Part shown: piece by piece, positions 9,608 to 55,828 of the stretch
Layout of the letters: the number at the start of each line of letters is the position of its first letter
Position numbering within the stretch: the stretch's first letter is position 1
NCBI GenBank assembly: GCA_965203315.1
Contig: OZ241857.1
Coordinates: forward strand, 1,600,001 to 1,664,000
DNA from: Nitrosopumilus sp.
GTDB lineage: Archaea; Thermoproteota; Nitrososphaeria; Nitrososphaerales; Nitrosopumilaceae
DNA: 64,000 nucleotides
Direction: 5' to 3'
Program-made: the position numbers and the translations under genes
Notes under the pieces: model-generated
Database searches by the model: none
Told to the model about the DNA's origin: nothing
Seen by the model: only the letters and a program-made list of their open reading frames with translations

Positions 9608-9697
9608 TATTCTAATACCGATCTGCTGTCTCTAGAACTGATTAACTAGTATTCATTACTAATTATAACAAAAATGAATCTATGCTGATGTATTCTA

Positions 9698-11230: not shown

Positions 11231-11232
11231 TA

Positions 11233-11363
11233 TAGTCACGAGCGGAATTGTTTTCTTGTTTACTCCCGCATATGTGGAGCCAGAGACGGAATTTACCTCT
11301 GGCAGAACACATAACATCAAATTATGATACTGAACACTAGGAAAATTATTGTGTTCACGACTA
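11233..11363. mobile_element. 131-bp MITE with IS630-like ends, abutting the IS630
   Basis: Left end TAGTCACGAGCGGAATTGTTTTC; right end reverse-complements to TAGTCGTGAACACAATAATTTTCC; TA on both sides. Confidence 0.7.
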
Positions 11364-11444
11364 TAGACTTACAGAACTTGGTACACTTTATCGTATATGT
11401 TATATTGGCAAATTAATTTATATTAGAAATAATACAAAATTATA

Positions 11445-12280
11445 ATGTACAGAGAACAGAAAGTTAAATATTTAGATGTAGTTAGAAGTATCAATAACGT
11501 ATCGAAAAGACTCGATATGTATAACAAAATTAGTTTTGATAACACACTTGGATTTTTAGAAAAATTATTGTCAGTTCAATACAATTTACAAGAACAAAAC
11601 TTATTTCATAAATTAACTACAAGAGAATCAGAAAAAAACATAAGTTCATATGTCAACAAGCTTTTTTCATCTAACATTGAACAAATTTATGCTTCAGTTT
11701 TTTATTGGAGCGTAAATTAATGGAGCCTCCTCTCGCTAATATGAGATCAGTATTTGAATCAATTTCAAAAATGTATTATATTGTATTATTTCCTAAAGAA
11801 ATTGAAAACATATTGGTAAATGAAAAGCTTCGTAATGTTAAATTTGACAAAGTAAAAGAAGAATTAGATCGTATGGATTTAGAATATAAGAAAAAATACA
11901 AATATTTAACATTAAATCAAAACAAATATCGTGATTTTCAAAAAAAGTACACAGCAAGTCAAATTAGAAAAAATCTATACGGTGACCAATTACCTACAAT
12001 ACAAAAGAACTGGGATTTTCTTTGCCATAAGAGTCACGCTAACATAACCGAGTATCCTTATCACATAGCTTTAAATCAAAAAAATGATATTGTGTATTTT
12101 GAATTCCTCGCATGTTTGTTATTTTATAACATAACTGCAAATCTTGAAACAAGTTATGATTTAGAGTATTTTAATCTAATAAGTGAAGAACTTTACAGTA
12201 TAGCTAATCCTAAGTTCATGAGGTTTCACCTGATTCCAGATAAAACCTTTCTAGCTAAAAAACTAAAATTTGTTTGGTAA
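11445..12280 (+). pseudogene. DUF5677/HEPN-like protein split by a frameshift (ORFs 11445-11720 and 11705-12280)
   Basis: MRSVFE...LCHKSHAN motifs; one extra T in the T6 run at 11698-11703 fuses the two ORFs. Confidence 0.55.
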
Positions 12281-26323: not shown

Positions 26324-27846
26324 GGGGTTGTCCGGTGAATATCTCGTAAAATCTATGCATTTTATGATCTCTTAAACAAAATACAACAAATTAACTCTAT
26401 TTGCCGTTATTTTTCTATTAAAAGTTAAACTTTGGTGCAAAGTGTACCGTTTTGCACTTCAATAATCAAGTTTGATTAATTAAAACGCCACAAATTAATG
26501 CTCGACAAGCATGCATTTACCAAAAAACAGTATTTGGTTACCACTCAATACCCACTTGTGCTAAAATTACTTTTGAATTATGTGCAGCAATCTTGAACTT
26601 TAACTCTTGAACCATGTTTTCCCATTTTATTGCTTTAATGTCTTCACCAAATAGGAGTTTCATTGTTGAAAATACGCCTTCAACATTTGCACGGTCTCCA
26701 TATCCTAGAATTATCTTCCAATCATCTTGATTTTCTTCGCGTTCGTCTGTTGGCATGGAATTTAGATCTTTACCATCTAAAGCACCAAATTGAAACTCGG
26801 CTAATTTACTTCTGGGATCATCTCCATGTGATACTGCATTACGTTTTATCAATATTCCATTGATGAGATTATACATCATACAAAACTCGTGAATCTTTTT
26901 TGTATCATAACCTTTGTCGGCGAGAATTTTCTTTGTGATTGGTTTACCGGTACGATTACATTCATCAACTATCTCTGTTGCATCTTTTAATAGTTGCTTA
27001 AACTGTGACGAATCTGATTTCTTGTCAGTCGTAATGCTGTATGACCTTATAATCTTTGAATTCACGTCTATACAAATGTGCATTTTTACAAATCCATCTC
27101 GTTCTACTTTGTAATGGGCTTCAATCCATCGACCACCTGCATGTTGTCTAAAGCCAGAAGCATCAATAGCTAGAGTATGTGGCATTTTAGACTTTATAAT
27201 TAAGAGATCGTTTAAAATATCGACTTCCTGTGCTTTTATTCTAGCGTGTAACTGAGATCTACGTGGTATCTTGAAATTAGGAAAAGATTTCTCTAACTCT
27301 TTTATGAGTCGTCTATATGAATAGTTGTTTCTAGATTTTGTAATGCCTGCGTACATTATAAGAGCTTCTGAATAAAGGAATTGTCCACCACGTTTATTTT
27401 TATTCATAAGAGTTAACTCTTTTTCGAATTCTTCTTTAAATTTATCCTCGTCTTCCAATCTTAAAACAAGCATAAAAAATAAAAGTCTTAATCTTGGTTT
27501 ATGTTTTAATGATTTCATAATTCTACTTAAATTTCTTGCTTTCTCACGTTTTTCTTTACGATTCATGTCCTCATCTTTTAGAAACTTGAACCAATAAGGG
27601 AAATCACTCGCCATGACATTTCTAAAAATAGTTCCCCTTTATAGATCTTTTCATTTTGATATCTATTTTGTGTTTTAAAATTAATTGTAAACTAGAACTT
27701 GTTACTAATTCTATGCAGCAGTTGAAAAAACAACACTAGAAACGATGCAATTAGAGAAAATATTTCTCATGTGTTCAAAATCGAGCGATTTGTATCCCCG
27801 ATGAGTGGATTTGCAGCTGCCCTATTCCTATTCACCGGACAACCTC
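26324..27846 (-). mobile_element. IS5-family (IS903-like) insertion sequence, 1523 bp
   Basis: 18-bp TIRs G(G/A)GGTTGTCCGGTGAATA (26324-26341 / 27829-27846); 8-bp TSD CTAATCGC (26316-26323, 27847-27854). Confidence 0.92.
26538..27614 (-). CDS. IS5-family DDE transposase
   Basis: LAIDASG, KMHICID, ADKGYD, YGDRANVEGVFSTMK. Confidence 0.92.
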   Translation of the reverse strand: MASDFPYWFKFLKDEDMNRKEKREKARNLSRIMKSLKHKPRLRLLFFMLVLRLEDEDKFKEEFEKELTLMNKNKRGGQFLYSEALIMYAGITKSRNNYSYRRLIKELEKSFPNFKIPRRSQLHARIKAQEVDILNDLLIIKSKMPHTLAIDASGFRQHAGGRWIEAHYKVERDGFVKMHICIDVNSKIIRSYSITTDKKSDSSQFKQLLKDATEIVDECNRTGKPITKKILADKGYDTKKIHEFCMMYNLINGILIKRNAVSHGDDPRSKLAEFQFGALDGKDLNSMPTDEREENQDDWKIILGYGDRANVEGVFSTMKLLFGEDIKAIKWENMVQELKFKIAAHNSKVILAQVGIEW

Positions 27847-28079: not shown

Positions 28080-28517
28080 ATGGCCATGGATGAGCCCATA
28101 CCTTCCTTTATTGACGAAGGTACATTTGAAATATTCTTGAGTTATAGCAGTGATACTGAAAAGCAATTTGAGATGTACGTTGATGAACTGAAAATACGTC
28201 TTAGTCAACACAACATGAATGTGATTACAGCTCCCCACGATCAAGATGGTGGGGATGATGGTGACGAATACATCATGACAAAGATACAAACATGTGATGT
28301 GTTGTTGGCATTACACACTGAAACTTGTAAATCATCAAATTACTTTGATCAAGAGATTGGTGTTGCTCTTGCATACAAAGTTCCAATAGTTCCAATTTGT
28401 GTTAAAGCAAAACCTTATGGATTCATCCAAATGAAAAAGTGTATATCTTATGATCATGCCATGATTGATAAAACATCACAGATAGTACATTCAATCAAAA
28501 AGCAATATTGGCGTTAG
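28080..28517 (+). CDS. Stand-alone TIR-domain protein
   Basis: IFLSYS, CDVLLALHT, SNYFDQEIGVAL (putative catalytic Glu), PIVPI. Confidence 0.85.
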   Translation: MAMDEPIPSFIDEGTFEIFLSYSSDTEKQFEMYVDELKIRLSQHNMNVITAPHDQDGGDDGDEYIMTKIQTCDVLLALHTETCKSSNYFDQEIGVALAYKVPIVPICVKAKPYGFIQMKKCISYDHAMIDKTSQIVHSIKKQYWR

Positions 28518-36565: not shown

Positions 36566-37639
36566 TCACCTTTTTTTCTCTGATCTATGTGCCAGCCACT
36601 CTCCCATCTCTGGCAGAACTCGTTTTTGAGACAAACTACTAGCAATCATTCCTACATGGCCTGTTGGGTAGACCTGGAGTGTCTTGTCCTGACTATTCAC
36701 TGCATAATGAAGTGGCATACTACATTCTGGTGATACTAGGTGATCTCCTACTGCCACTTGTGTAAATATCGGCATATCTATCTGTTTTAGATCTACTAGA
36801 TCATTGCCTATGCGCATCTTGTTCTGAATGAGTAGATTCTCTTGATAGATATCTTTGATCCATTGTCTAAACAACTCACCCGGTATAGGTGGTGTATCGC
36901 CCAACCATCGTTCTACGCGAAGAAAGTTGTCAACGAACTGTTGATTGTCTATGTTCTTAAAAAATTTGACATACTTTTCAATCCCTTGTTCAAACGGCTT
37001 TAGAACCGAGAAACAGTAATACATAAACTCTGGTGGCATGTTTCCTATTGTATCTACCATCTTGTCGACATCAACATGTTTTGCTAAATTACTGATCACC
37101 GTTGTATCTCGCCAACCGTCTATTACTGGAGCAGTCGCGATATAGTTTTTGATATTCTCTGGATGAAGTGCAGCATATGCGGTAGCAAGTGTACCTCCTG
37201 TACAATATCCTTGCAATGATATCTCTTCTACCGATGCCTCATCTTTGATATATTCTATATGTCCGTCTAGATATCCATTTACATAATCGTCAAAGTCCAA
37301 GTACTTGTCCATGTTGGTTGGCTCTCCCCAATCCAACATGTATACATCAAATCCTTGATCTAGTAAGTTTTTGACCCAACTCTTCTCTGGATGGATATCC
37401 AAGATATGATAGCGATTTATCAACGCGTATGAGATTAGTAGTGGTGTCTGGTATAACGTTGATCGATCTGATGTGTAGTGTAATAGTCTCGTCTTGTCTA
37501 TAGTATGTGATGTGTAGTGCAGAGTCACTTCCATGTTTATATCCTCTGGCGCAACAGCTAGCTTTGGTGCATCAGTTACATTCTTGCTAAATTTTATAAT
37601 CTCCTCGATTATCTGGGGGTCAATCTCTTCTCTCTGCAT
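36566..37639 (-). CDS. phaC: Class III PHA synthase subunit PhaC
   Basis: YALINR.HILD, GYCTGG lipase box, DHLV, GHVG. Confidence 0.93.
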   Translation of the reverse strand: MQREEIDPQIIEEIIKFSKNVTDAPKLAVAPEDINMEVTLHYTSHTIDKTRLLHYTSDRSTLYQTPLLISYALINRYHILDIHPEKSWVKNLLDQGFDVYMLDWGEPTNMDKYLDFDDYVNGYLDGHIEYIKDEASVEEISLQGYCTGGTLATAYAALHPENIKNYIATAPVIDGWRDTTVISNLAKHVDVDKMVDTIGNMPPEFMYYCFSVLKPFEQGIEKYVKFFKNIDNQQFVDNFLRVERWLGDTPPIPGELFRQWIKDIYQENLLIQNKMRIGNDLVDLKQIDMPIFTQVAVGDHLVSPECSMPLHYAVNSQDKTLQVYPTGHVGMIASSLSQKRVLPEMGEWLAHRSEKKR

Positions 37640-38243
37640 TCTGCCTACTCCGTTTCTTTGCCTCTATCTCTAGCCTGCCTACTCGTTTTCTGAGAGTATT
37701 AATCTCTTTGTATATCTCATCAATCTCTTTCTTGCTAGGAAGATTTGCTGATTGGAGTATTGTATTTACTATGTTATTCCAATGATTTGTGATCTCTAAC
37801 TCTTTTGCAACTAACTTGCCATAGTTTGTTCCAAACTTTTCTGAATCGAACAACTCTGTAAAATCATTATCGTATATGTCAATCCATATTCGCTTAAATG
37901 CTTCTATCTGTTCTACATCTTTAGGAATCTTGGGCACCTTAAAATTAACTCGTTCTTGTGCATCTGCCCATGTCTCTGATAGTTGCTTATAGTATTCTGC
38001 AACGTATGTGTTAAACTCGGTCAACAATCCATTGATCTCGATCAACTCTGAACTGATCTTCTTCGAGTTTGTAGCAAAAGTCCGCATCGGTCCAACCGAT
38101 GTCAAAGCTTGTGGTTTACTTGTCATCAGATGTATGATATCTGTCCAAAATAGCGATAGATGTTTGTAGTAGGTTGACATATCGTTATCGTTTGTTTTTG
38201 TATCTTTGGTAAGACTTGACGCGTTATCCACTTCCATAGACAT
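37620..38243 (-). CDS. phaE: PHA synthase subunit PhaE
   Basis: LPSKKEIDEIYKEINTLRKRV motif; directly upstream of phaC. Confidence 0.85.
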   Translation of the reverse strand: MSMEVDNASSLTKDTKTNDNDMSTYYKHLSLFWTDIIHLMTSKPQALTSVGPMRTFATNSKKISSELIEINGLLTEFNTYVAEYYKQLSETWADAQERVNFKVPKIPKDVEQIEAFKRIWIDIYDNDFTELFDSEKFGTNYGKLVAKELEITNHWNNIVNTILQSANLPSKKEIDEIYKEINTLRKRVGRLEIEAKKRSRQNAERRD

Positions 38244-42197: not shown

Positions 42198-43403
42198 ATG
42201 TCGATCAAACTTGGATTGATAGGCAAAACCAATACTGGCAAGACCACCTTCTTCAACTCTGCAACATTGTCATCTGGCGAGATCTCGTCATACCCGTTTA
42301 CAACAAAACGCCCCGAGTTTGGAGTGGGTCATGCTATAACACTATGTGTTCATCCAGAGTTTAAACTACAAGATGATCCAAACAACTCCAAATGTAGTGA
42401 TGGATGGCGTTACATTCCCATCGAGTTGATCGATCTACCTGGTTTGATAAAAGGTGCATGGTCAGGTAAGGGACTTGGAAATCAATTTCTAACAATTGCA
42501 GCACAATCAGATGCACTGTTACATATAGTCGATGCCTCTGGCGGAATAGATGCAACTGGAAAGATCACTACAACTGGAACAGGTGATCCAATATCAGATC
42601 TTGCGGATATCGAAGAAGAGCTGGTAATGTGGTATAACAAGATATTTGAAGGCAATAGAGACAAAGTATCCAAACTGATTAGAGCAGGTTCTGATACCGA
42701 GTCTGCGATATCAGATCTATATCGTGGAATAGGTGTAAATCGTGATCACGTAAAGAACGCAATCGCCTCTGCCCAACTCGAGTCCAAACATATCGATGAT
42801 TACACTATATCTGATAGTAAACTCTTTGCAGGGTGTCTGAGGCGATTCTCCAAGCCTACGTTGATTGTAGCAAACAAGATCGATGTCGAAGGTGCAGACA
42901 AGAACTTTATTCGATTGCAAGAACGATATCGTGACTCGATCGTGATTCCTGCTAGTGGTGATAGCGAGTACAGTCTTCGACTAGCTGAACAACGTGGTCT
43001 CATCCGATACTCGCCTGGCTCGGAGCAGTTTGAGATACTCCAACAAGACAAACTAAACACTAAACAGCTTGATGCCTTGGACTTTATCAAACGAGGCATA
43101 ATGGGAGAGTATATGCGAACTGGAGTACAGTTTGCAGTAAACGTTGCTGTGTTCAAGTTATTGAAGATGAACTCGATATATCCAGTGGCTGATGCTGATA
43201 AACTCTGCGACAAACAAGGACGTGTTCTACCTGATCTCATTCTATTAAAAGATGGTGCAAATATAGGTGATCTTGCTAAAGAGATACACACCGATCTCAC
43301 AAAAGGTCTGCTGTATGCCAAAGATGTGCGGTATAACCTCAGACTTCCTATCGACTATCAGCTTCGGGATCGAGATGTCGTATCACTAGTCAACGCAATA
43401 TGA
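42198..43403 (+). CDS. ychF: YchF/Obg-family GTPase
   Basis: GKTNTGKT, YPFTT, DLPG, GLGNQFL, NKID, TGS domain. Confidence 0.92.
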   Translation: MSIKLGLIGKTNTGKTTFFNSATLSSGEISSYPFTTKRPEFGVGHAITLCVHPEFKLQDDPNNSKCSDGWRYIPIELIDLPGLIKGAWSGKGLGNQFLTIAAQSDALLHIVDASGGIDATGKITTTGTGDPISDLADIEEELVMWYNKIFEGNRDKVSKLIRAGSDTESAISDLYRGIGVNRDHVKNAIASAQLESKHIDDYTISDSKLFAGCLRRFSKPTLIVANKIDVEGADKNFIRLQERYRDSIVIPASGDSEYSLRLAEQRGLIRYSPGSEQFEILQQDKLNTKQLDALDFIKRGIMGEYMRTGVQFAVNVAVFKLLKMNSIYPVADADKLCDKQGRVLPDLILLKDGANIGDLAKEIHTDLTKGLLYAKDVRYNLRLPIDYQLRDRDVVSLVNAI

Positions 43404-43579
43404 GATCTCTTTCTAGCTCTTGTTCGCAGTACTGCCTTACAACATATGCAACGAGTATCGTTTATACACATAAAGATGTCACAAAAAGTACATCGCTTTT
43501 GTCCTATCTCGTATCTGATCTTATTTGGTGCAGGCTTGGCTTTATACATACAACATATGTTTCGACACGTTCTACCCAT
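43358..43579 (-). CDS. Small Cys-rich Zn-binding protein downstream of the TFB paralogue
   Basis: CRNIC...RYEIGQKRCTFC...RCICCKAVLRT; start overlaps the TFB stop. Confidence 0.6.
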   Translation of the reverse strand: MGRTCRNICCMYKAKPAPNKIRYEIGQKRCTFCDIFMCINDTRCICCKAVLRTRARKRSHIALTSDTTSRSRS

Positions 43580-44468
43580 CTAGATCATCTCCCACAACTT
43601 GACGAATCTCTCTTGTCCTATCTCGAATAGTTACAGCACTAATTCCTGACACATCTGCGATTTTTACTTGTGATATATTCTCTGCATTTATTATAGAAGC
43701 TAGATGTATAGCAGCAGCGGCCATCGCCACTGGATTCTTACTCGTTGTAATGTTCTTTCTTTGAGCAATATCTAGTATGTCTAGTGCACACCTCTCTGTC
43801 CTCTCTGATACCGGAATCGATTTTGCAATTCTTGGTACAAACTCGATTGGACTATATGCGACCGGCGTGATATCCATCTTTTTTATTATAAATCGATATA
43901 TCTTTTGTAGATTCTTCTTTTTGATGTTTCCTGCTGTTGCAATGTCTTGAAGTGTTCGTGGGGTATTTGTGAGTCTACATGTTATGTATATTGCAGCACA
44001 CAGTGCACTAGTAGTTGATCGTCCAGATAGTATCTTCTTTGCTACCATCTTTCTAAAAAAGTGCGCTGTCTGTTCAACTATTGGCTCTGGCAACCCAAGC
44101 CGACCTGCCATGCCATCTAGTAGAATGAATGCTTTCTGAAACGACTTGGTCGACAAGGCATATCTGCTGTTTCTGTCCCACATCCTTAAACGATAGAACA
44201 TTCGTTTATTCTCACTTGACAGATCCCTGCCAGTAACATCTTTGTCTTTTGACTCGATGATTGTAGACAGTCCCATGTCTACCATCTTTAACGAGATCTT
44301 TTGTCCAGTTCTAGATTCGTTATAATGTTCTCCAGTACTCTCAGGTCCTGTGTAAAACACTCTCTCTGAACAGACTGCACCACAATTACTACAAGCAATC
44401 TCGCCTGTATGATAATCTGTAACTATATTACTACTCTTGCAATCTGCCTGATGAACTATCTCTACCAA
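43572..44468 (-). CDS. tfb: TFB paralogue (divergent B-reader)
   Basis: TDYHTGEIACSNCG, RLRMWD, PRTLQDIA, GISAVTIRDR; lacks EWRSF. Confidence 0.9.
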   Translation of the reverse strand: MVEIVHQADCKSSNIVTDYHTGEIACSNCGAVCSERVFYTGPESTGEHYNESRTGQKISLKMVDMGLSTIIESKDKDVTGRDLSSENKRMFYRLRMWDRNSRYALSTKSFQKAFILLDGMAGRLGLPEPIVEQTAHFFRKMVAKKILSGRSTTSALCAAIYITCRLTNTPRTLQDIATAGNIKKKNLQKIYRFIIKKMDITPVAYSPIEFVPRIAKSIPVSERTERCALDILDIAQRKNITTSKNPVAMAAAAIHLASIINAENISQVKIADVSGISAVTIRDRTREIRQVVGDDLDG

Positions 44469-44519
44469 TATGTTGTATATTGTCTTTGAAATTATTTAAA
44501 GCGACAATCATATTCAAAC

Positions 44520-44558
44520 TAGTGCTAAACCAGGTATTTACAAAAACTTTTGGCACCA
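44520..44558. promoter_or_regulatory. Putative operator: inverted TAGTGCTAA-N21-TTGGCACCA upstream of the TFB paralogue
   Basis: About 20 bp upstream of a minus-strand TTTAAATA TATA box (44493-44500). Confidence 0.6.
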
Positions 44559-44814
44559 TGTCGTAAATACATACATAGTTAAATTCTCAAATATGCGCTA
44601 AATTTTATGTCTTGTGTTTTGTTTACCATTTGTAGATTTTACATAAAACCTATGATCAACTTTGAGTCGTGTCAACCATTGAATCATACACGTCTGAACT
44701 CTAGTGCTAAAGATGTTAATTCAAATATCTTGATAGACATCTCTGCAAATTCGTTATCGTCTAGATATACTAGGCACGGTTTTAAATCATATTCAACTTG
44801 TACGTGATGTATAG

Positions 44815-45252
44815 ATGAGTTACTCTTTTCGACTACAATCTCACTCCTCACTCCCACAATCGGTATTGTACAAGATAAGTACAGATATTTCCAACTTTGA
44901 TAAAGTCATGCCTAATCACTTTCGTTCAATTGATATAGTAAAGTCTAGTGCCAACACGATCACAACCAAGGAGCATATCGTCTTTTTACATATTCCGATA
45001 ACTATCAAAGTACATCACAAGATTGTACCGCCGGATATGCATCAAGTAGATATCTCGAGTGGACCATTTTCTGGCACGCAGTTTGTTGAGCGCTATACAC
45101 CTCATCATACTGGAACAATTATAACTATAGATGTGACACTCCCTTGCTATCTACAACTCTTTAAACCTGTTAGATATCTCGTATCCAAAATAATGCTTAA
45201 TACCTTGGAGCAATTTGTTATGTCTGCAGAGATGTACGAGTCCAAGAGATAG
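44815..45252 (+). CDS. SRPBCC / polyketide-cyclase-like protein
   Basis: YKISTDISNFDKVMP...ISSGPFSG pattern. Confidence 0.72.
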   Translation: MSYSFRLQSHSSLPQSVLYKISTDISNFDKVMPNHFRSIDIVKSSANTITTKEHIVFLHIPITIKVHHKIVPPDMHQVDISSGPFSGTQFVERYTPHHTGTIITIDVTLPCYLQLFKPVRYLVSKIMLNTLEQFVMSAEMYESKR

Positions 45253-45270
45253 TTGGCACTATAGTGCAAA
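45253..45270. promoter_or_regulatory. Putative operator palindrome TTGGCACTA-TAGTGCAAA
   Basis: In a short intergenic gap, 12 bp before the TATA-like ATAAATAT of the desaturase-like gene. Confidence 0.62.
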
Positions 45271-45310
45271 TAGCTTTGCAGAATAAATATCTTGATTATG
45301 TATGCTGATC

Positions 45311-46645
45311 ATGGTTTATGATGTTTTAGTAATTGGTGCCGGAGTTGGCGGATTGTCATCAGCTGCACTGTTGGCAAGACAAGGTTACTCTGTCAAAGTC
45401 GTCGAGCGTGCAGAGAAGGTTGGCGGCAGAATTGCATCTACTGTGTATCGCAACCATATATTGGATAATGGTTTTCATATAATGCCTTTTTATAAAAAAT
45501 CAGCAATCTATTCTATACTGAAAGAACTTGGGATAGAGTCAAGGTTACGTCTTGCCAAAGTTGATAACATTGCATTTTATGATAACGAATTTTATCGATA
45601 TCCAAAAGGGATTACAGATATTCTTCGAATGTCGATGATTCCAATAAAAAGTAGATTTCAATTATTGCGTCTATTACTTCCACTCGCATTCTCTTCTGTA
45701 TCGAGAACAGAACAATGGGATGATACTCCTCTTACAAACATAACTCATAATCTAGATTCGGCCACATCAGCATTCTTTGAAGCAGTATGCATGCTGGCGT
45801 TTGCTGACACTGCAGAACACATATCTCTAGGCGAGTTTGCGCGTACTATAATTCGAGCAAATCCATTCAAAGGAGGTACTAGCGAATTTGCATATCCACA
45901 CTCTGGTGGATACGATGCTATTACTAACCTCTTGGCAGACTATATTCATGAAGCAGGAGGTGAGATAGAGACAAGTTCTAGAGTACAACAGGTGATGGTC
46001 AAAGATTCAAAAGCAGTTGGTATTAAATTTGATTCAGGCGAATCTTTAAACGCACGATCAATAGTGATATCGTTTCCTGCATATCTTGCTCTACATCAAC
46101 TCTTTGAACCAAATATTATAGATCCCAAGTTTGTCGCAAAGATAGATCAACTCAACAAAACTACATCTGTGGTCGAAGTTCATTTTGCGCTACGATCACA
46201 GCTCGACTCTAGACAAGTGATCTTTCCTGTAGGGGACTATGTCACTAAAGGAATATTCTTCATCTCAAATATCACACCAAAAGTATCTCCTCTTGGAGAG
46301 CATCTGATAATTGCAGGCACACCTGTACCGCCTTCAATCCCAAAGAATCCTAGCAAGGTTAGAGACGTTGTTGATAAAATGAAACAAGAGATATCAACTA
46401 TCTATCCAAAATTCAAATCTGAACTCATCTGGGAGATGCCAAAAGCATGGAGTCTAGTCGAGTCAGTAGTCAAGGAACCAGGCAAGGTGTGGTTATCCAA
46501 GATGCCACACCAGATATCTGGAATTGACGGTCTATTCTTTGTAGGTGATTCTACTGTAAGCTATGGGATTGGAACCGACTCTGCTGCGCACAGCTCTATA
46601 CTATGTCATCCAAAGATCAATACCTATCTGTCAAATACTTCGTAA
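45311..46645 (+). CDS. Phytoene-desaturase-like FAD oxidoreductase
   Basis: VIGAGVGGLSSAALLA, VERAEKVGGR, LDNGFH, YPHSGG, LFFVGD. Confidence 0.8.
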   Translation: MVYDVLVIGAGVGGLSSAALLARQGYSVKVVERAEKVGGRIASTVYRNHILDNGFHIMPFYKKSAIYSILKELGIESRLRLAKVDNIAFYDNEFYRYPKGITDILRMSMIPIKSRFQLLRLLLPLAFSSVSRTEQWDDTPLTNITHNLDSATSAFFEAVCMLAFADTAEHISLGEFARTIIRANPFKGGTSEFAYPHSGGYDAITNLLADYIHEAGGEIETSSRVQQVMVKDSKAVGIKFDSGESLNARSIVISFPAYLALHQLFEPNIIDPKFVAKIDQLNKTTSVVEVHFALRSQLDSRQVIFPVGDYVTKGIFFISNITPKVSPLGEHLIIAGTPVPPSIPKNPSKVRDVVDKMKQEISTIYPKFKSELIWEMPKAWSLVESVVKEPGKVWLSKMPHQISGIDGLFFVGDSTVSYGIGTDSAAHSSILCHPKINTYLSNTS

Positions 46646-47473
46646 GATCTTTGGAATCTCATCAAGCTCAACATCGCCTACGACACGTGCTGCAAGTTTA
46701 GGGATATCTTTGGTGTGCAATGCATATCCACCAACTAGGATCGGTTTGTTGTATGTGTCATTGATCTTTTTGATCAATCTCTGACCTGCTACTATGTTCT
46801 CAGGCAGAGTTATTGAAACAAAGACTACGTCAGGATCATTATCTCTAATAAAGTCTAGAATCGCTCTAGTTGGAATAGATGTTCCCATATTGTATACTCT
46901 ATATCCTCTTGTAGTTAGATACGTCTCTAGTACATCACATCCTAGATGGTGCTCTTCGCCCACCGGAACACAGATCATTATCTTCTTTTTATTCCCTTTA
47001 TTGGATACGCGACTCATGATTATCTTTATCAATGTCTGTGCAACGTTACTTGCTACATGCTCGGTGGCAATTCCAATCTTACCGTTGGCCCAATCCTGAC
47101 CTATATCCTTCATGACTGGTCGTAATATCTTGTCAAAAAATCCTGCCTCCGCAAAAGATTTCGCATACATGTCGTATATCTTTAAACACTCTTGAATATC
47201 TCCTTCTGTCAATTTCTGGTACAGATTCTTCTTTGATCTATTTGTTGCTCTATCTCTTTTTTTGATATCTTTTGGACTATGTGCTGCAAGAGCAGAGAGT
47301 ATCTTTGGGTCGTTGCGATATTGTACTGGAATATCATCTTGTTCAACTTGTGATGCTTTTCCGAGATACTTTACTATCTTTTGCTTTGACGTGTTCTGTT
47401 TAGAGTCCCAGACACTCTTTACCAAGTATAGATACCTGTCCGACTTTATCTTCTTGACTCTGATGTATACCAT
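46631..47473 (-). CDS. CarH/LitR-type cobalamin-binding regulator with atypical N-terminal domain
   Basis: W-ANGKIGIAT-EH (Wx9EH), GEEHHLG, VSIT and VGG B12 motifs. Confidence 0.85.
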   Translation of the reverse strand: MVYIRVKKIKSDRYLYLVKSVWDSKQNTSKQKIVKYLGKASQVEQDDIPVQYRNDPKILSALAAHSPKDIKKRDRATNRSKKNLYQKLTEGDIQECLKIYDMYAKSFAEAGFFDKILRPVMKDIGQDWANGKIGIATEHVASNVAQTLIKIIMSRVSNKGNKKKIMICVPVGEEHHLGCDVLETYLTTRGYRVYNMGTSIPTRAILDFIRDNDPDVVFVSITLPENIVAGQRLIKKINDTYNKPILVGGYALHTKDIPKLAARVVGDVELDEIPKILRSI

Positions 47474-47504
47474 CTGTTTGATATGTCTGCTTTTGATATA
47501 TAAC

Positions 47505-47598
47505 TAATGCCAATTTTACAATATAGTGCCAACTTTTTGTTATTTACTTGGCACTATAAAGTATTTTTAACACTAGTTTAAATTCATAGTAGTGCCAT
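47505..47598. promoter_or_regulatory. Divergent promoter with four boxes, including the perfect inverted pair TATAGTGCCAA-N15-TTGGCACTATA
   Basis: TAATGCCAA 47505, TAGTGCCAA 47524, TTGGCACTA 47548, TAGTGCCAT 47590; TATA-like elements near 47495 (-) and 47577 (+). Confidence 0.72.
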
Positions 47599-47607
47599 GA
47601 TATTCTA

Positions 47608-48945
47608 ATGAAAAAGACAGTTCTCGTAACAGGATGCACTGGCTTCATTGGTTCTAGACTGATATCACGGCTTGGAGAATTAGACTATAGTGTACTGGGA
47701 ATGAGTCGACGAGATCTAGATGATACAGATAACATTAGATATGTCAAAGCTGATGTCTTTGATCTAGACAACCTGATAGATGCCATGCGTGGAGTTGATG
47801 TAGCATATTATCTACTACATTCGATGGAAGGCAGTCGAGACAAGTGGCAACAGTTTGCAGGACGAGAGAGAATACAAGCACAGAACTTTCTCAAAGCAGC
47901 TACTATCTGTGGAGTAAAGAGGATCATATATCTTGGCGGTCTAGTTGATGACTCTCTAGATCTATCCCCTCACATGAAGAGTCGAATAGATGTTGGTAAA
48001 ATATTGGCATCTGGTGATATTCCTGTAACTGAACTTCGAGCATCTATAATTATTGGTGCACAGAGTGGCTCTTTTACAATGTTGCGTTATCTGGTAGAGC
48101 GACTATCTGTAATGATATGTCCTTCGTGGGTAAACTCTCTTGCGCAGCCAATCGCAGTTGGTGATGTAATCGAATATCTTGTTAGATGTATAGGGGTTGA
48201 TGAGACAGAAGGTAAGATATTTGAGATTGGTGGTCCAAAACAACTCACCTACAAGGATCTACTATATGCCTATGCCGAATACCTTGGCAAAAATATCTAC
48301 ATCTTGCAGATCCCATTTCTCACAACTAGACTCTCTTCGTACTGGGTTGATCTGATAACTCCTGTCAAAGCAGCACTTGCACGTCCACTAGTGGATAGTC
48401 TTGTACACGATACAGTTGTGACTAGTAGACCTATACACGATCTCATTCCTTTGAAACTCAAGTCATTTGAAGAAGCGATCGATATAGCAGTACATGAGAT
48501 GAGTGATTCCCCTCCACATCTCAAACTAACAGAGAAGACAAGTTTTTGTACAAATCAACGAATTCTTCAAGTGTCACTGGTCGCAATGATGATCATAGGT
48601 ACTACATACTATTGGCTAGATGACAGATCAGATGTCTTTCATGTACTGTGGCTGTTTGCTGCGTTCTTGTGGTATACATCTTGCATCTCTGCAATCTTTT
48701 TGATCCAAAAGAAGACTCGACTTGGATATGTTCTTGCTGGTATATTGTCGTGGATAACTCTGGCATTCTGGCTCTTTGACAACTATTATGTTGTATTTGG
48801 TGATACAGCTATTGCTGGTATGCCAAATGATGCGATGACTAGTCGTAACTTTGTCGGAATGTTTGTAGCGGCCATCTCTATCGTTGCATCACATAACCTA
48901 TTTCACAAGATTGTAAAGTATCAGTTTAAGGGAAGACAAATCTAG
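47608..48945 (+). CDS. YbjT-like NAD(P)-binding (SDR) protein with C-terminal membrane domain
   Basis: VTGCTGFIG, YYLLHSM, ELRASIIIG, QPIAVGDV, SSYWVDLITPV; about four TM helices at the end. Confidence 0.82.
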   Translation: MKKTVLVTGCTGFIGSRLISRLGELDYSVLGMSRRDLDDTDNIRYVKADVFDLDNLIDAMRGVDVAYYLLHSMEGSRDKWQQFAGRERIQAQNFLKAATICGVKRIIYLGGLVDDSLDLSPHMKSRIDVGKILASGDIPVTELRASIIIGAQSGSFTMLRYLVERLSVMICPSWVNSLAQPIAVGDVIEYLVRCIGVDETEGKIFEIGGPKQLTYKDLLYAYAEYLGKNIYILQIPFLTTRLSSYWVDLITPVKAALARPLVDSLVHDTVVTSRPIHDLIPLKLKSFEEAIDIAVHEMSDSPPHLKLTEKTSFCTNQRILQVSLVAMMIIGTTYYWLDDRSDVFHVLWLFAAFLWYTSCISAIFLIQKKTRLGYVLAGILSWITLAFWLFDNYYVVFGDTAIAGMPNDAMTSRNFVGMFVAAISIVASHNLFHKIVKYQFKGRQI

Positions 48946-49104
48946 TACGTGATATTTTCATATATGACGAACCATGTCAATGATCTCTACAAGATAAATT
49001 TTCAGATGGTAATATGTGATTATATTACATACACTAGAATTTAGAACTTGATCTTTACAGATACTATGATTCTGATATAAACCTCAATAATTTTTATATC
49101 TGCC

Positions 49105-49983
49105 TTGCCGTTGTTTAATATGTCTAAATCACAAGAGAATACTGAATATATGTTGTGTAATGTATGCTTTGAACCATTTATGTATAATGATGTAAAATGG
49201 CTCCCAGAGAAGACAAAGTATTTTTCTAACAAAAATTTTAAACACGTACTTAAGGGTCTCGAAGATAAATCATTTGTTGAGTCATTTAAGAAAAAAAGAA
49301 AAGAGATGCTGGATTTGCAAAAGAGATTTCATAATGGTGATTATGACTCGATCGTAGATGACTTTATAAATATGCATAAAGTAGGTATAGAAATCGAAGA
49401 AATTAAGATGTACAAGATTCATATGTTGAATGTTGTTAAAAGACTGCGTAATAATTTAGATGATGACATGAAACGACATGTGGATAACCTTACGCAGTAT
49501 CCTGGACTAGTATTTGGCTGCTATGATTTTTCATATACCTCGAGGTGTCCACACTGCACGTTCCCAACAGTTCTAGTGTGGCGTGGACACGAGTCACTAA
49601 AGCGCTGTATAAAAATTAAGAGCAAGGATGACGACGACAAGAGTACATTTAGATGTATATCGTGCAGTACCGAATTGATTGCAGAGCACCATATTTGGAA
49701 ACGTGTTGATACTCCTAAAGGCATATATCTGGAAACCATCTGTCAAAAATGCAATAAAGCACAACCATATCCCTATGGTTTCAATTCCCTTTCAAATGTA
49801 GTCGAGAGTGGAGGACCACACTCTAGAATAGAATATGAAAAAATTCCTAAATGGATGATCACTGTACCTAGGTCGTATATTTGTGTTGATATTGGAGTAT
49901 TGGATTCTCAAATATACACTGTACCTGACAACAGAGAGATTGCGGACGCTGCATCGATTCTATTTACATTCTGGAAAAATTGA
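49105..49983 (+). CDS. Hypothetical multi-CxxC protein, paralogue of 33369-34277
   Basis: CNVC, CPHC, CISC, CQKC plus the shared blocks. Confidence 0.75.
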   Translation: MPLFNMSKSQENTEYMLCNVCFEPFMYNDVKWLPEKTKYFSNKNFKHVLKGLEDKSFVESFKKKRKEMLDLQKRFHNGDYDSIVDDFINMHKVGIEIEEIKMYKIHMLNVVKRLRNNLDDDMKRHVDNLTQYPGLVFGCYDFSYTSRCPHCTFPTVLVWRGHESLKRCIKIKSKDDDDKSTFRCISCSTELIAEHHIWKRVDTPKGIYLETICQKCNKAQPYPYGFNSLSNVVESGGPHSRIEYEKIPKWMITVPRSYICVDIGVLDSQIYTVPDNREIADAASILFTFWKN

Positions 49984-50413
49984 CCCATGTGTTGATGATC
50001 TGAATGTGCTTGTTAGACTGTGGCAATTGCTTTTTGAGTCCCTCCTCAATGAAGTCTATTTTTAATATGATTGATCACAATAACTGATGTCAAGTTAGCA
50101 GAAAAGACAAGAGCCGATAAACCAGATATCTCTAGAGACATGAACATAACATTTTGATAGACAAACATGAAAGAGATATGTTAAAGAACATTTAGCAATT
50201 GTGATCGAAGAACTGGAATCCAAACTTGCATGATTCCAACATAATTACGTGATTGGTCATCTTGAGTTTTCTATCGCTGGGTATGTCAGGATCTATTGTA
50301 GTCTTGCTCAAATATAATCAATTATTATTTGGATTTATTGATTTGTCGTCAATCATATCTGAATTACTGTGCAGATATAGTATAAAAAACCTAATGAATA
50401 AAAGTATCTGCTA

Positions 50414-51568
50414 ATGGTCAATTCTGTTGATATTCGTCATGCTCTACTAGATCAATGGAATCGACAACTAGCTCAACATACTTTGTACCACTCAGACTCG
50501 TTAAGTGGTGCCAGTCCACCATCTGTATTTGTAGGATCGTATGGATACCCCAAAGTGCTTGTAGGACCTATGGTTCCGCCAACACACGGTGACACAAGTC
50601 TACTCGATAGTCCAGAACAATGGAAAGATATGTCGCTTGATGAGATCATAAACTTTAGACTCAATCTAGTTCGTGGTACGCAAAAGACGCCTATCGATCA
50701 AACAGATACTAGATACATACAAGAACTCCAAGTATTGAGCATGTCATCAAGACCTATCGATACTGATCTAGAATTTGATCAACCGATCAAGCCTATTGTA
50801 TCACTTGACGATCACAGTCCTGTATTTGGTCCAATGGGACAGATAACTAATGCTCGATTTGGTTCTGCATCTACACTTCGACCTATTGAGAGAGTCTTTT
50901 ACGATCGAGATCTTGGCGCAGCAGATGCTGTATTGAATCTATATCGAGCAGATGTCGAGATCTCTAGAATTCAACGTTGTTTTAGTATTGGTATGTTGGG
51001 TAAGAGTCGATCTCTAGTACCAACTCGTTGGAGTATTACTGCAACCGACGATATCATATCGAGATCTCTTGCTGATGATATCTTGGATCACTCTCTCATC
51101 GACTCTTGTATGGTGTTCACATATGCACATCTTGGAAACAAGTTTGTTGTAATACTGTTTCCGCACAGATGGCTCTATGAGATGATCGAGGCATGGTACT
51201 CTGATGGTGTATTGGGGTTTGGTTCTGATCATGAAGATGCACGTGGGATATCACATCCGCCAGCAATTGCTGGCGCATACTTTGCTGCTAAACTTGGCGT
51301 CTTGGAGTATCTTTCACATATACAGAGACAGGCTGGAGTCTTGATATTGCGTGAGATCAGTCCCGAGTATGCGCTTCCGGTCGGAGTATGGCAGATTCGT
51401 GAAGGTGTGCGGGCAGCTATGCAACAGATGCCCATAATGCTTGAATCCTTTGATGTTGCACTAGACGTGGCTACAAAGATGACAAACATTGCCACCCACG
51501 AGTGGCTTAAACACGGTCACATCTTCGAGATGCTTAGACAAAAGGTGTTGTCTGATTTTGTGATATAA
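50414..51568 (+). CDS. nreA: Nre-family (NreA) PCNA-interacting DNA repair protein
   Basis: SPPSVFVGSYGYPKV, LVPTRWSITATDD, GAYFAAKL, PVGVWQIRE; C-terminal PIP QKVLSDF. Confidence 0.9.
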   Translation: MVNSVDIRHALLDQWNRQLAQHTLYHSDSLSGASPPSVFVGSYGYPKVLVGPMVPPTHGDTSLLDSPEQWKDMSLDEIINFRLNLVRGTQKTPIDQTDTRYIQELQVLSMSSRPIDTDLEFDQPIKPIVSLDDHSPVFGPMGQITNARFGSASTLRPIERVFYDRDLGAADAVLNLYRADVEISRIQRCFSIGMLGKSRSLVPTRWSITATDDIISRSLADDILDHSLIDSCMVFTYAHLGNKFVVILFPHRWLYEMIEAWYSDGVLGFGSDHEDARGISHPPAIAGAYFAAKLGVLEYLSHIQRQAGVLILREISPEYALPVGVWQIREGVRAAMQQMPIMLESFDVALDVATKMTNIATHEWLKHGHIFEMLRQKVLSDFVI

Positions 51569-52073
51569 CTGATGTAAAGAGATCTCGCTGTGGTTCAGAG
51601 TACAGCAAAAAGTATGTTTGGTTGGCAAGATATGTTTTATTAAATTTGTAAATTATGGGGTTTATCGTAGCCAAGACTGTTCCTAACATTAACTCCTTAC
51701 GCTTGTATTTGTCTATCAATGCAATAAACGACATCTTTTCATTATGATCAAATTCATTCGAAAAATGTCCAAAGACGTGCATTATGACATTACTATGTGT
51801 CTTGATGGTTGGCTGTCGTTCTAACACTAGATGTAGATCTTTTTCGTATTTGGTTAGAATATTGTTCATCTCTCCATGTTTATAACTTGCAACTATTCTA
51901 CCAAGTGTCTTTAGTTTAGATTGGTCACGGGACATTATCAGATACTTGTTTCTCGCATGAAACTCTACTAGATGACGAATTCTAGCTAGTCTCTTAATGT
52001 GGTTGAATCTAGATGACACGAACTCGGTAATATCGCTATCTGATATCTCACTAGTTCCATTTGCTGACTCCAT
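51534..52073 (-). CDS. DUF1722 (YbgA-like) protein
   Basis: LVEFHARNKYLIMS, LGRIVA, HSNVIMHVFGHF, YLANQTYF. Confidence 0.88.
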   Translation of the reverse strand: MESANGTSEISDSDITEFVSSRFNHIKRLARIRHLVEFHARNKYLIMSRDQSKLKTLGRIVASYKHGEMNNILTKYEKDLHLVLERQPTIKTHSNVIMHVFGHFSNEFDHNEKMSFIALIDKYKRKELMLGTVLATINPIIYKFNKTYLANQTYFLLYSEPQRDLFTSVISQNQTTPFV

Positions 52074-52124
52074 CTATTTGATTTATGATCCTATGAATAT
52101 AAAGTCAGATCTTTTATATTTGAT

Positions 52125-52176
52125 TTAGCACCAGATTTAGCTAAATTTGTTGGCACTATATTGAAAATTACCACTA
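52125..52176. promoter_or_regulatory. Three same-orientation boxes (TTAGCACCA, TTGGCACTA, TTACCACTA) upstream of the DUF1722 gene
   Basis: At 52125, 52150 and 52168; minus-strand TATA TTTATATT at 52096-52103. Confidence 0.6.
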
Positions 52177-52208
52177 GCTTATATATCAAATTAACACATG
52201 TCTATTCA

Positions 52209-53090
52209 ATGAAAGCACAACTACTAGTACTGACACTTGTCGTAGTGATATCTACAATATCTGTCGCACATGCCGAAGTTCCTTCGTGGATAAAGAGTAC
52301 AGCAGGATGGTGGGCAGATGGTTCTATATCGGATGACGAGTTTCTCAGTGGTATCTCTTACTTGGTGACAAATGGATTCATAGACGTTCCGACTAGTACG
52401 CAGACATCTACATCCGATACAGTTCCTTCATGGATCAAGACTAATGCAGGATGGTGGGCAGATGGTTCTATATCGGATGACGAGTTTCTCAGTGGTATAT
52501 CGTTTCTGATAGGCGCAGGACTCATTACTGTCGGTACTGATACAACTCAAGATATTGAAAGTGGTGATCAAACCGAACTAGAGTTACTTGAATCAGAACT
52601 TGAAGAGTGTGCCAAGATTACTAGAGCTGTTGATCGAATAGACTGTGAAAAGCCTATCAAAGACGAGATCAAACTCTACGAGTACAAACAAGATTCGACA
52701 AAGTTTGTTGTAGGTCCAATAGTCTACTATTGGAAAGGTCTTGGCTCTGACGGAAATAGTTTCGAGATAAGCTCAAGTGGTCAAGCACTATTGAACATTC
52801 GAATGTTGGCAGAGAATACCGCCTCTGAGAATGTAGCACTACACTGCACTAGCCCGTCTATATGCAACTATGATGTATGGGATGGCTCCAAGTCATTCAA
52901 ATACTCTGGGATGGACTTCACTAGCGGCATGATAGTCATCAAGCCAGGCGCTGCAAAAGAGTTTAACATTCTGTTTGGACCAAACATTGGATATGGTGGA
53001 ACTCAGTTCATATATGATCCATCAAAGAACTACCAGTTTCGGATCAATGAGAACTTTGGAAGTGTCAACATTGATCTGCCACTGGAGTAA
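52209..53090 (+). CDS. Secreted protein with two thaumarchaeal VPSWIK-AGWWADG repeats
   Basis: Signal peptide ending AHA; duplicated domain. Confidence 0.85.
   Translation: MKAQLLVLTLVVVISTISVAHAEVPSWIKSTAGWWADGSISDDEFLSGISYLVTNGFIDVPTSTQTSTSDTVPSWIKTNAGWWADGSISDDEFLSGISFLIGAGLITVGTDTTQDIESGDQTELELLESELEECAKITRAVDRIDCEKPIKDEIKLYEYKQDSTKFVVGPIVYYWKGLGSDGNSFEISSSGQALLNIRMLAENTASENVALHCTSPSICNYDVWDGSKSFKYSGMDFTSGMIVIKPGAAKEFNILFGPNIGYGGTQFIYDPSKNYQFRINENFGSVNIDLPLE
52302..52498 (+). repeat. Identical 53-bp direct repeat (52302-52354, 52446-52498)
   Basis: GCAGGATGGTGGGCAGATGGTTCTATATCGGATGACGAGTTTCTCAGTGGTAT x2. Confidence 0.9.
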
Positions 53091-55525: not shown

Positions 55526-55828
55526 TCAAATGTCCACATAGATCCCATCGTCTCTTGTCTCTATTGGATATGTTGTCAGTTTGACATCTTTGAGATAATC
55601 GACCAACTCGCCGGTTTTAATGTTATAGTGCCAAAAGTGTAATGGACACTCTACTATGTTGCCGTCTAGTTTTCCAGGCGCAATTGAACCATCTTGATGA
55701 ACACAGAGATCGTCTAGTGCGTGATATCCATCTTGATTGAATATGGCGATCTGTTTGTCATCGATCTTGAAAGATTTACCTTTTCCTGATGCAATATCGC
55801 CCTTTTCGGCAACCTTTTTCCATGCCAT
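55526..55828 (-). CDS. Rieske [2Fe-2S] ferredoxin
   Basis: CVH and CPLH ligands. Confidence 0.92.
   Translation of the reverse strand: MAWKKVAEKGDIASGKGKSFKIDDKQIAIFNQDGYHALDDLCVHQDGSIAPGKLDGNIVECPLHFWHYNIKTGELVDYLKDVKLTTYPIETRDDGIYVDI

Follow-up and report, generated by a model that had tools for sequence, protein, structure and literature searches.

A conserved, probably box-controlled gene cluster around a photoreceptor-type B12-binding protein in Nitrosopumilus and related archaea

Ammonia-oxidising archaea account for a large share of nitrification in the sea and suffer inhibition by light, and no light-sensing regulator described for them was found in the literature searched. A 64-kb stretch of the genome of Nitrosopumilus sp. 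(contig OZ241857.1, positions 1,600,001 to 1,664,000; hereafter the window) carries a gene cluster in which the gene of a cobalamin (B12)-binding protein, below called the sensor, is accompanied by a paralogue of the archaeal transcription factor TFB and by several genes preceded by a common 9-bp box. An earlier note, made from the letters of the sequence, had read this cluster as a B12-dependent light-response regulon. Open reading frame (ORF) listing and Pfam and NCBIfam scans of the window's proteins located all the genes it named where it had placed them. The data presented here give good support to a conserved regulon that is controlled through the box and centred on a B12 protein of the photoreceptor type, and this regulon may be a light-response regulon.

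The sensor has a basic beta-sheet N-terminus (residues 1 to ~45) followed by a linker, also basic, a bundle of four helices, and finally the B12-binding domain with a Rossmann fold. The Wx9EH motif is located in the four-helix bundle (W128-x9-E138-H139), and the B12 motif ExHx2Gx41SxTx25GG is complete in the Rossmann domain (E173-x-H175-x2-G..., residues 173-249). Together, these two motifs define CarH homologues, while methionine synthase (MetH) has no Wx9EH cap (PMC8156234; this and the other PMC-numbered papers are cited for the passages available from them). The sensor family comprises 1676 clusters at 90% identity (E<=1e-3), the closest 120 of which were listed; all of these are 280-285 aa long and, where named, originate from Nitrosopumilus, Nitrosarchaeum or Nitrosopumilaceae. 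Wx9EH is present in all 120 and in 42 of 46 distant full-length homologues from a 50%-identity library, and the strict form of the B12 motif was found in 119 of the 120. In an alignment of 34 family sequences, the GExH, S and GG positions are kept, with G172, E173, H175, S220 and G248-G249 being invariant. A distant Arg/Ala-rich branch (P0157-P0219; 23-30% identity) has kept the invariant residues of the N-terminus and, mostly, Wx9EH.

A profile of the 34-sequence alignment was searched against PDB sequences, and the nine best distinct matches were all B12 photoreceptors, with E-values from 3e-31 to 5e-26: the photocobilins 8j2x, 8j2w and 8j2y, the Chloracidobacterium MerR-B12 protein 8jbs, LitR 3whp, and CarH 5c8d, 8c31, 5c8a and 8c35. 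Below them in the same search were MetH (1e-20) and then corrinoid proteins and AerR (~1e-18). For the AlphaFold (AF2) model of the sensor (predicted local distance difference test, pLDDT, 91.3; predicted template modelling score, pTM, 0.74), the listed Foldseek matches in PDB (ranks 1-49) were all the same photoreceptors, with a target-normalised template modelling (TM) score of up to 0.85 to the CarH cobalamin-binding domain and an E-value of about 1e-12. CarH was the best NCBIfam model, although its 59 bits fall well short of the cutoff of 400. By motif, profile and predicted fold, the B12 module of the sensor is a CarH-type photoreceptor domain, as the earlier note had concluded from its Wx9EH/ExH residues.

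The homologues are named at source 'cobalamin B12-binding domain-containing protein', 'histidine kinase', 'MtbC1' and, once, 'light-induced transcriptional regulator'. The kinase name was discarded, the Pfam scan having found no kinase domain in the sensor. A corrinoid protein of a methyltransferase system (MtbC/MtaC/MtgC) would account for the JGI name 'methanogenic corrinoid protein MtbC1' of many homologues and for the 38-44 bits scored with NCBIfam MtgC/MtbC models. However, these scores are far under the cutoffs of 215-370, the photoreceptors matched the profile in PDB with E-values of 1e-31 to 1e-26 versus 9e-19 for corrinoid proteins, no methyltransferase gene is present in the window cluster or in the related loci described below, and neither the conserved additional N-terminal domain nor the operator-like boxes would be expected in a methyltransferase system. 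We consider this explanation extremely improbable.

The N-terminal domain of the sensor is not of the MerR type and matches no known family, in agreement with the regulator architecture of its own that the earlier note had claimed. Three long antiparallel beta strands are predicted in residues 2-39 (AF2 models), and the first 45 residues include 11 K+R versus 3 D+E. Residues R5, K7, Y14, Y16, V18, Q31, Y36 and G38 are invariant in the 34-sequence alignment, and this is the best conserved part of the protein, with 73-82% identity to the sensors of five related loci, compared to 63-66% for the whole sequence. Such a very basic and best-conserved domain fits one contacting a conserved DNA box, and it could represent a new basic beta-sheet DNA-binding head. 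In an Atlas search, the N-terminal 62 residues gave scores of only 0.82, within the range reached by shuffled sequences. A likeness to integrase 'arm'/AP2-type or transposase N-terminal beta-sheet DNA binders was considered and dropped, being unsupported by Foldseek against PDB and BFVD, by the PDB profile search and by Pfam; the best Foldseek match in PDB was PC4-like (probability 0.44, E 1.6).

The region of the cluster holds the following genes, including a flavin adenine dinucleotide (FAD) oxidoreductase and a short-chain dehydrogenase/reductase (SDR):

43358-43579 (-): small Cys-rich ORF with ~60 conserved residues, overlapping the end of the TFB-paralogue gene
43572-44468 (-): TFB paralogue, 298 aa, with TFIIB repeats
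44815-45252 (+): orf145, 145 aa, no family match above threshold, directly 5' of the FAD oxidoreductase
45302-46645 (+): FAD oxidoreductase, amine-oxidase fold, CrtI/HpnE-like; probable true start at ATG 45311
46631-47473 (-): B12 sensor, 280 aa, Pfam PF02607 and PF02310
47608-48945 (+): SDR, 445 aa, NmrA/epimerase-type, with hydrophobic C-terminal segments as read from the translation
49105-49983 (+): 292-aa ORF, Cys-rich, no family match
50414-51568 (+): NreA, with Nre_N and Nre_C
51534-52073 (-): DUF1722 protein (YbgA-like), PF08349, stand-alone
52161-53090 (+): orf309, 309 aa, in which an in-frame ATG at 52209 opens the signal-peptide-like MKAQLLVLTLVVV

A genome scan with one query protein revealed five related loci (L001-L005), all from Nitrosopumilaceae: two Nitrosopumilus metagenome-assembled genomes (MAGs), a Nitrosarchaeum MAG, Ca. 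Nitrosopumilus limneticus, and Ca. Nitrosomarinus. As determined by tblastn, the order and orientation orf309 (one or two copies)/DUF1722/SDR/sensor/FAD oxidoreductase/orf145/TFB paralogue are kept in all five, with the SDR varying: full-length orthologues (54-56% identity) are present in L001, L004 and L005, fragments in L002, and none in L003. Orthologues of the FAD oxidoreductase (66-69% identity) occur in all five loci, and those of the TFB paralogue (58-64% identity), orf145 and DUF1722 are syntenic in all five. Copies of the small Cys-rich ORF with 67-77% identity directly follow the TFB paralogue in four loci, with no match in L005. The conservation across Nitrosopumilaceae that the earlier note had wished to see checked was thus found in these five loci, in which the core of the cluster is syntenic and the box is phased.

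The related loci also carry extra genes, namely a 120-aa ORF heading the orf145/oxidoreductase operon (5/5), a 121-aa ORF heading the SDR operon (3/5) and, beyond the TFB paralogue, the genes of two proteins of 226 aa (membrane-anchored) and 140 aa; no homologues of these four ORFs were found in the window, where the 120-aa and 121-aa ORFs are missing from 44469-44814 and 47474-47607 and orf145 has lost the upstream orf120 promoter. Additional boxes are located beyond the TFB paralogue (13073 and 13710 in L001, 13075 in L004, 8283 in L003), upstream of the genes of the 226-aa, 140-aa and 104-aa proteins, the last of which also has no homologue in the window, and for this reason the regulon seems to be larger in Nitrosopumilus. 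Conversely, nreA and the 292-aa ORF are found in none of L001-L005, and no box precedes them even if one mismatch is tolerated. Both were therefore rejected as members of the regulon, to which the earlier note had assigned nreA, and the segment carrying them (48946-51568) looks like an insertion into the cluster.

The 9-mer shared by the cluster promoters is TTGGCACTA, which can be generalised as TTRSCACTA. The exact sequence occurs six times in the 64 kb, at 44946(-), 45253(+), 47524(-), 47548(+), 52150(+) and 55626(-), whereas 100 dinucleotide shuffles gave 0.36 copies on average and never more than 2; with up to one mismatch, 30 copies were counted, while the shuffles averaged 13.1 and reached at most 22. 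TTRSCACTA has nine copies in the window, eight of them between positions 44520 and 52176, which is 12% of its length, and the chance of such a concentration is about 4e-7 by binomial arithmetic on the counts. In the window and the five loci combined (134.7 kb), intergenic DNA holds 52 copies and coding DNA 5, corresponding to 1.69 versus 0.048 per kb. These results support TTRSCACTA as a real operator-like element whose position is conserved across five other Nitrosopumilaceae loci. The sixth exact copy (55626-55634, minus strand) lies beyond the cluster inside a 100-aa Rieske-domain ORF and was rejected as an operator, being intragenic and probably due to chance. The exact copy at 44946-44954 is inside the orf145 coding sequence, was not seen in the orthologues, and could be either a roadblock site or a chance occurrence.

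In the promoters of the cluster, the boxes are arranged relative to the TATA element as follows:

44520-44528 (-): promoter of the TFB paralogue, with box TTAGCACTA placed 30 nt upstream of TATA
45253-45290 (+): FAD-oxidoreductase promoter, TTGGCACTA at 45253-45261, then a partial inverted copy, and TAAATAT at 45284-45290
47496-47532 (-): sensor promoter, box1 TTGGCACTA at 47524-47532 and box2 TTGGCATTA at 47505-47513, abutting the TATA element TTATATAT at 47496-47503
47548-47598 (+): SDR promoter, box1 TTGGCACTA at 47548-47556, box2 TTAACACTA at 47567-47575, and the TATA element TTTAAAT at 47577-47583
52125-52186 (+): orf309 promoter, TTAGCACCA at 52125-52133, TTGGCACTA at 52150-52158, TTACCACTA at 52168-52176, and the TATA element TTATATAT at 52179-52186

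The window FAD-oxidoreductase promoter was missed by the script and read by eye, its box being 30-31 nt upstream of TAAATAT; in all five related loci the oxidoreductase box is at -28 to -30. The 346-bp spacer between the TFB paralogue and orf145 (44469-44814) contains two more boxes, at 44550-44558(+) and 44702-44710(-), making three altogether, and the SDR gene has an inverted box with one mismatch (47590-47598) downstream of its TATA element and ahead of its ATG. TATA-like elements are located 27-31 nt upstream of the start codons in the box promoters, for example ~29 nt upstream of the sensor ATG (TTATATAT) and 30 nt ahead of the in-frame ATG 52209 of orf309, implying leaderless or near-leaderless transcripts.

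The phasing of the box is strict. In 30 of 31 promoter instances with a detected TATA-like element, over the window and the related loci, a gene-facing box starts 28-31 nt upstream of it: 6/6 for the sensor, 5/6 for orf309, 4/4 for orf423, 5/5 for the FAD oxidoreductase, 4/4 for the TFB paralogue, 1/1 for the window SDR, and 5/5 for the orf120 operon. A second box is found at -10 to -12, over the position of the TFB-recognition element (BRE), at sensor (6/6), orf309 (6/6), window SDR and FAD-oxidoreductase (4/5) promoters, and a third one at -52 to -64 in all six orf309 promoters and at -55 to -57 in four of five orf120-operon promoters. In an alignment of the sensor promoters of six genomes, the invariant upstream columns, except A35, A91 and A102, all fall within the two boxes and the TATA element. 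As a control, 47 other ORFs of the window were examined; 15 of them have a TATA-like element, and only one of these 15 has even a loose box at these positions. A correctly placed box is missing at orf145 in the window, for which only the internal copy at 44946 and the distant inverted copy at 44702 are available. The common box that the earlier note had described upstream of most genes is thus enriched and phased in the cluster promoters, while there is none at nreA and none correctly placed at orf145. The strict -30/-10 phasing relative to TATA, like the secreted orf309 and the small Cys-rich ORF, is a feature not covered by that note.

TTRSCACTA is thus arranged in direct repeats at -30 and at -10 to -12 from TATA, with the sensor as the presumed binding protein. 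Such a layout would suit an oligomer whose DNA-binding heads are spaced by about 18-19 bp, one of them anchored at -30 and a second over the BRE. Building on the motifs, fold and synteny, and on the enrichment and phasing of the box, all of which were shown by the analysis, we propose with modest confidence, as somewhat more probable than otherwise, that the sensor is an oligomeric repressor that depends on adenosylcobalamin (AdoCbl), is probably released by light, and has a TFB paralogue dedicated to it. Loaded with AdoCbl in the dark, the sensor would oligomerise via its B12 domains, and its DNA-binding heads would occupy the TTRSCACTA direct repeats with their 18-19 bp spacing. One repeat would begin about 30 nt upstream of TATA at every regulon promoter, and at the strongest promoters a second repeat at -10 to -12 would cover the BRE, the site needed by TFB. 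The genes blocked in the dark would be those of the sensor itself (autoregulation), the membrane SDR, the FAD oxidoreductase, orf309, the TFB paralogue and probably DUF1722. Light would cleave the Co-C bond, the oligomer would dissociate and the promoters would open; the induced TFB paralogue, as a regulated initiation factor of a second tier, could then reinforce or widen the response, similar to an alternative sigma factor in bacterial light regulons. The output would probably be lipid/isoprenoid modification along with envelope or tRNA-related photoprotection.

That the sensor binds AdoCbl and DNA, that it represses, and that light is its signal is what we infer. Ammonia-oxidising archaea make cobalamin and use AdoCbl-dependent enzymes, and AdoCbl should therefore be available in these cells. 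Dark repression and release by light are proposed because of the analogy with CarH, which in the dark occupies direct repeats across the promoter as an AdoCbl tetramer and is freed by photolysis (PMC8156234; PMC10979010).

Several observations weigh against this proposal. The MerR domain that defines CarH and LitR is absent from the sensor, and no helix-turn-helix (HTH) was matched in Pfam; lacking the defining N-terminal MerR winged helix, the sensor is not a member of CarH/LitR in the strict sense. Its N-terminal domain had no significant match in Pfam (to E<=5) or, by profile, among PDB sequences, its best Foldseek E-values were 1.6 against PDB, with a model of only pLDDT 71, and 0.29 against BFVD, and a search for longer proteins with this domain found none, the short matches being fragments of the sensor family. 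Distant members vary in the spacing of the B12 motif, and only 8 of 46 have the strict form. Directly following the Trp of Wx9EH, the sensor has Ala, like 127 of 162 family members, whereas T. thermophilus CarH has at this position the His of its bis-His light state; a photocobilin is also without a bis-His adduct and yet light-sensitive (PMC10979010). The evidence of conservation comes from five loci of one family only. No photolyase, carotenoid or other known photoprotective genes were found in the window, as the earlier note had stated for crtB and photolyase. Finally, the class II promoters (TFB paralogue, orf120 operon and orf423) have no box at the BRE-proximal position, and the orientation and phasing of the boxes are also usual for archaeal activators and would be compatible with either sign of regulation; together with the free BRE of the class II promoters, they would suit activation or a mechanism tied to the TFB paralogue just as well.

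The sensor could, in fact, bind the boxes as an activator, recruiting TBP (TATA-binding protein) and TFB, or the TFB paralogue, from -30 under the control of light or cofactor state. In favour of this model, the boxes of seven promoter classes are nearly always gene-facing and 28-31 nt upstream of TATA, the BRE is free at the class II promoters, which have the upstream box only, and upstream sites are typical of archaeal activators. However, the promoters of the sensor, orf309, the FAD oxidoreductase and the window SDR have a second box that covers the BRE position, and at the window SDR an inverted copy lies downstream of TATA, before the gene start, both of which would be expected to block the pre-initiation complex; moreover, the described CarH/LitR proteins are dark repressors (PMC8156234, PMC11417400). 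We regard activation as unlikely.

The position of the proximal box exactly at the BRE also allows an explanation in which the sensor does not bind DNA at all. It could be a B12-dependent anti- or co-factor of the TFB paralogue, as AerR/PpaA modulate CrtJ/PpsR, and the boxes would be part of a longer promoter element, recognised by the TFB paralogue or the Cys-rich protein. The N-terminal domain has no detectable kinship to any DNA-binding fold, AerR (7te2) was among the profile matches with an E-value of 1.1e-18, the TFB paralogue and the Cys-rich ORF are constantly beside the cluster, and the C-terminal HTH of the paralogue departs from that of the housekeeping TFB. On the other hand, the boxes at -30 and at -52 to -64 would be out of reach of a BRE-bound TFB, the boxes occur in both orientations within the divergent spacers, and no part of the sensor is better conserved than its very basic N-terminal domain, which together leave this explanation as unlikely as activation. 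A further model, which we also think rather improbable, is that the B12 photoreceptor acts directly on the pre-initiation complex: bound at -30/-10, the sensor would choose between the housekeeping TFB and the divergent TFB paralogue (with its Cys-rich partner) at the BRE, so that light would switch general factors.

Instead of light, the protein could sense cobalamin supply or redox state and tune the genes accordingly. The presence of B12-binding domains, the production and use of cobalamin by these archaea, and the absence from the window of any Rfam family at gathering score, including the cobalamin riboswitch, are in line with this possibility. Cobalamin riboswitches are, to our knowledge, not known in archaea, and a tRNA scan of the window was also negative. 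However, the Wx9EH adenosyl cap, which is absent from MetH-type domains (PMC8156234), is present in every one of the 120 close listed homologues, the conserved cluster has no gene of cobalamin biosynthesis or transport or of a B12-dependent enzyme, and the gene families it has in common with other systems are those of bacterial light regulons. Sensing of cobalamin supply or redox state thus appears distinctly unlikely, and repression released by light remains the model that we prefer.

Among known systems, CarH and class I LitR (Myxococcus, Thermus, Bacillus) likewise have a bundle of four helices plus a Rossmann domain with Wx9EH and ExHx2Gx41Sx[VT]x22-27GG, and the gene of the regulator itself carries the operator, as the sensor gene would here. 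The candidate operator also consists of direct repeats overlapping the core promoter, as for CarH (PMC8156234), although here they are TTRSCACTA with an 18-19 bp period rather than the 11-bp nAnnTnnACAn repeats of CarH. Further differences are the unassigned basic beta-sheet N-terminus in place of the MerR winged helix, the archaeal host with BRE/TATA rather than -35/-10 as the target, the missing His beside the Trp, and the absence of carotenoid genes under control. The photocobilins are the best profile and Foldseek matches (8j2w, 8j2x; E 3e-31 and 3e-13) and, like the sensor family, have the W...EH cap and no bis-His light state (PMC10979010). However, the sensor ends at residue 280 after the Rossmann fold, without the C-terminal globin-like biliverdin domain, its alignments to 8j2w and 8j2x cover only the photocobilin B12 domain, and photocobilins are not described as DNA-binding in the available passages of PMC10979010.

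In Pseudomonas, LitR-controlled operons hold PhrB, LitR and RudS, a TudS-DUF1722 protein (PMC11417400), and the conserved region of pmlR1, which encodes a LitR-type regulator, includes a short-chain dehydrogenase and an FAD-dependent oxidoreductase (PMC9758184). DUF1722, SDR and FAD-oxidoreductase genes are therefore common to the Pseudomonas class II LitR clusters and the archaeal cluster, at the level of families, and the earlier note was right that similar families accompany light-inducible bacterial clusters (PMC11417400, PMC9758184). The archaeal window differs in having no photolyase, ufaM or TudS domain, and stand-alone DUF1722 (YbgA) was inactive in the RudS study (PMC11417400). By analogy, the common families lend support to a light or photo-oxidative theme. 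The arrangement of the sensor gene beside the gene of an alternative initiation factor that is itself a target resembles the LitR-LitS system of Streptomyces, in which a B12 sensor controls a dedicated extracytoplasmic function (ECF) sigma factor. TFB, however, is an archaeal general factor and not a sigma factor, and the archaeal cascade is suggested by gene order and box position only.

The TFB paralogue contains TFIIB repeats in two stretches (E 2.7e-30), and Zn_Ribbon_TF was matched with 29.8 bits against a cutoff of 29 (Pfam). It has 36-37% identity to the housekeeping TFB, and of its Zn ribbon the first CxxC knuckle is lost; that the protein is divergent is also evident from the 248 bits scored with the NCBIfam TFB model, below the cutoff of 384. 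The C-terminal HTH reads SGISAVTIRDR, compared to SGVTEVTIRNR in the housekeeping TFB, which hints at a changed reading of the BRE. The small Cys-rich ORF (43358-43579) has the pattern C-x3-C ... C-x2-C ... C-x-CC and no Pfam match; its product may be a partner of the TFB paralogue.

The FAD oxidoreductase matched Pfam Amino_oxidase (E 1.8e-33), with PRK07233, HpnE and the CrtI family as the nearest NCBIfam models, all below cutoff. In PDB, the closest protein by sequence is the uncharacterised archaeal oxidoreductase 3ka7, and the protein aligns end to end with the plant phytoene desaturase 5mog (residues 7-437). The SDR matched Epimerase, NAD_binding_10 and NmrA in Pfam; the gene that the earlier note had called YbjT-like is thus an NmrA/epimerase-type SDR, while no DUF2867 match was found in the Pfam scan. 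The SRPBCC gene of that note, orf145, exists as an ORF, and its label rests on sub-threshold matches to Polyketide_cyc (at best 18.1 bits, where 23.4 would be needed, and E 0.0033; 4/6 orthologues at E<1), while its profile found nothing significant in PDB; the protein is possibly SRPBCC-like. DUF1722 was matched by PF08349 with 109.7 bits against a cutoff of 22.5 (E 1.3e-31), and the protein has no TudS domain. Its membership in the regulon is likely, although less certain, because the boxes in the spacer common with orf309 are inverted relative to it. From the in-frame ATG, orf309 (52209-53090, plus strand) encodes a probably secreted protein with a duplicated motif of ~30 residues, PSWIK..AGWWADGSISDDEF, and no Pfam match. 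NreA was identified by Nre_N (291 bits, E 1.5e-86) and Nre_C (114.6 bits).

The rest of the window contains housekeeping genes, among them the housekeeping TFB, three DDE transposases, and PhaC/PhaE-like genes. The three transposase genes (6521-12280 and 26538-27614) together with a low-GC stretch (0.28-0.33 at 8-12 kb) suggest insertions of mobile elements. Close to a transposase, a stand-alone TIR_2-domain ORF of 145 aa (28080-28517, plus strand) may be defence-related. A PhaC-like gene (alpha/beta hydrolase with PhaC_N) and a PhaE-like gene (36566-38243, minus strand) adjoin the housekeeping TFB, apparently indicating a potential for polyhydroxyalkanoate synthase.

The earlier note regarded such a system as undescribed in this group, and full-text literature searches likewise found none: no paper linking a CarH/LitR-like or B12 photoreceptor to Thaumarchaeota or Nitrosopumilus was retrieved, with the limit that reviews of B12-domain architectures might hold archaeal cases. 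The only text found with both 'CarH' and 'Thaumarchaeota' was a general B12 review, which treats them apart in the passages available (PMC8123684), and CarH-like domains are known to occur in more complex, uncharacterised architectures (PMC10979010). The B12 photoreceptors named in the literature and structures examined are all bacterial. What would be new here is the combination of a known sensor module with a new DNA-binding head, in a new domain of life and with a new promoter logic.

If the proposed mechanism is true, the sensor would be the first archaeal AdoCbl photoreceptor and would bring with it a new DNA-binding domain. The regulon would be compact and directly testable, consisting of a single protein, its 9-bp box and some six promoters that give leaderless transcripts, and it would point to a photoprotection chemistry (CrtI-like oxidoreductase, membrane SDR, DUF1722, secreted proteins) without carotenoid genes in the cluster. 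The phasing of the box relative to BRE and TATA would offer a clean model for the gating of archaeal transcription initiation by light or a small molecule. Should the sensor instead choose between the two TFBs, it would constitute a light-gated mechanism resembling a sigma switch, with a previously unseen DNA-binding fold, and this TFB switch could underlie the perception of daylight by non-phototrophic nitrifiers.

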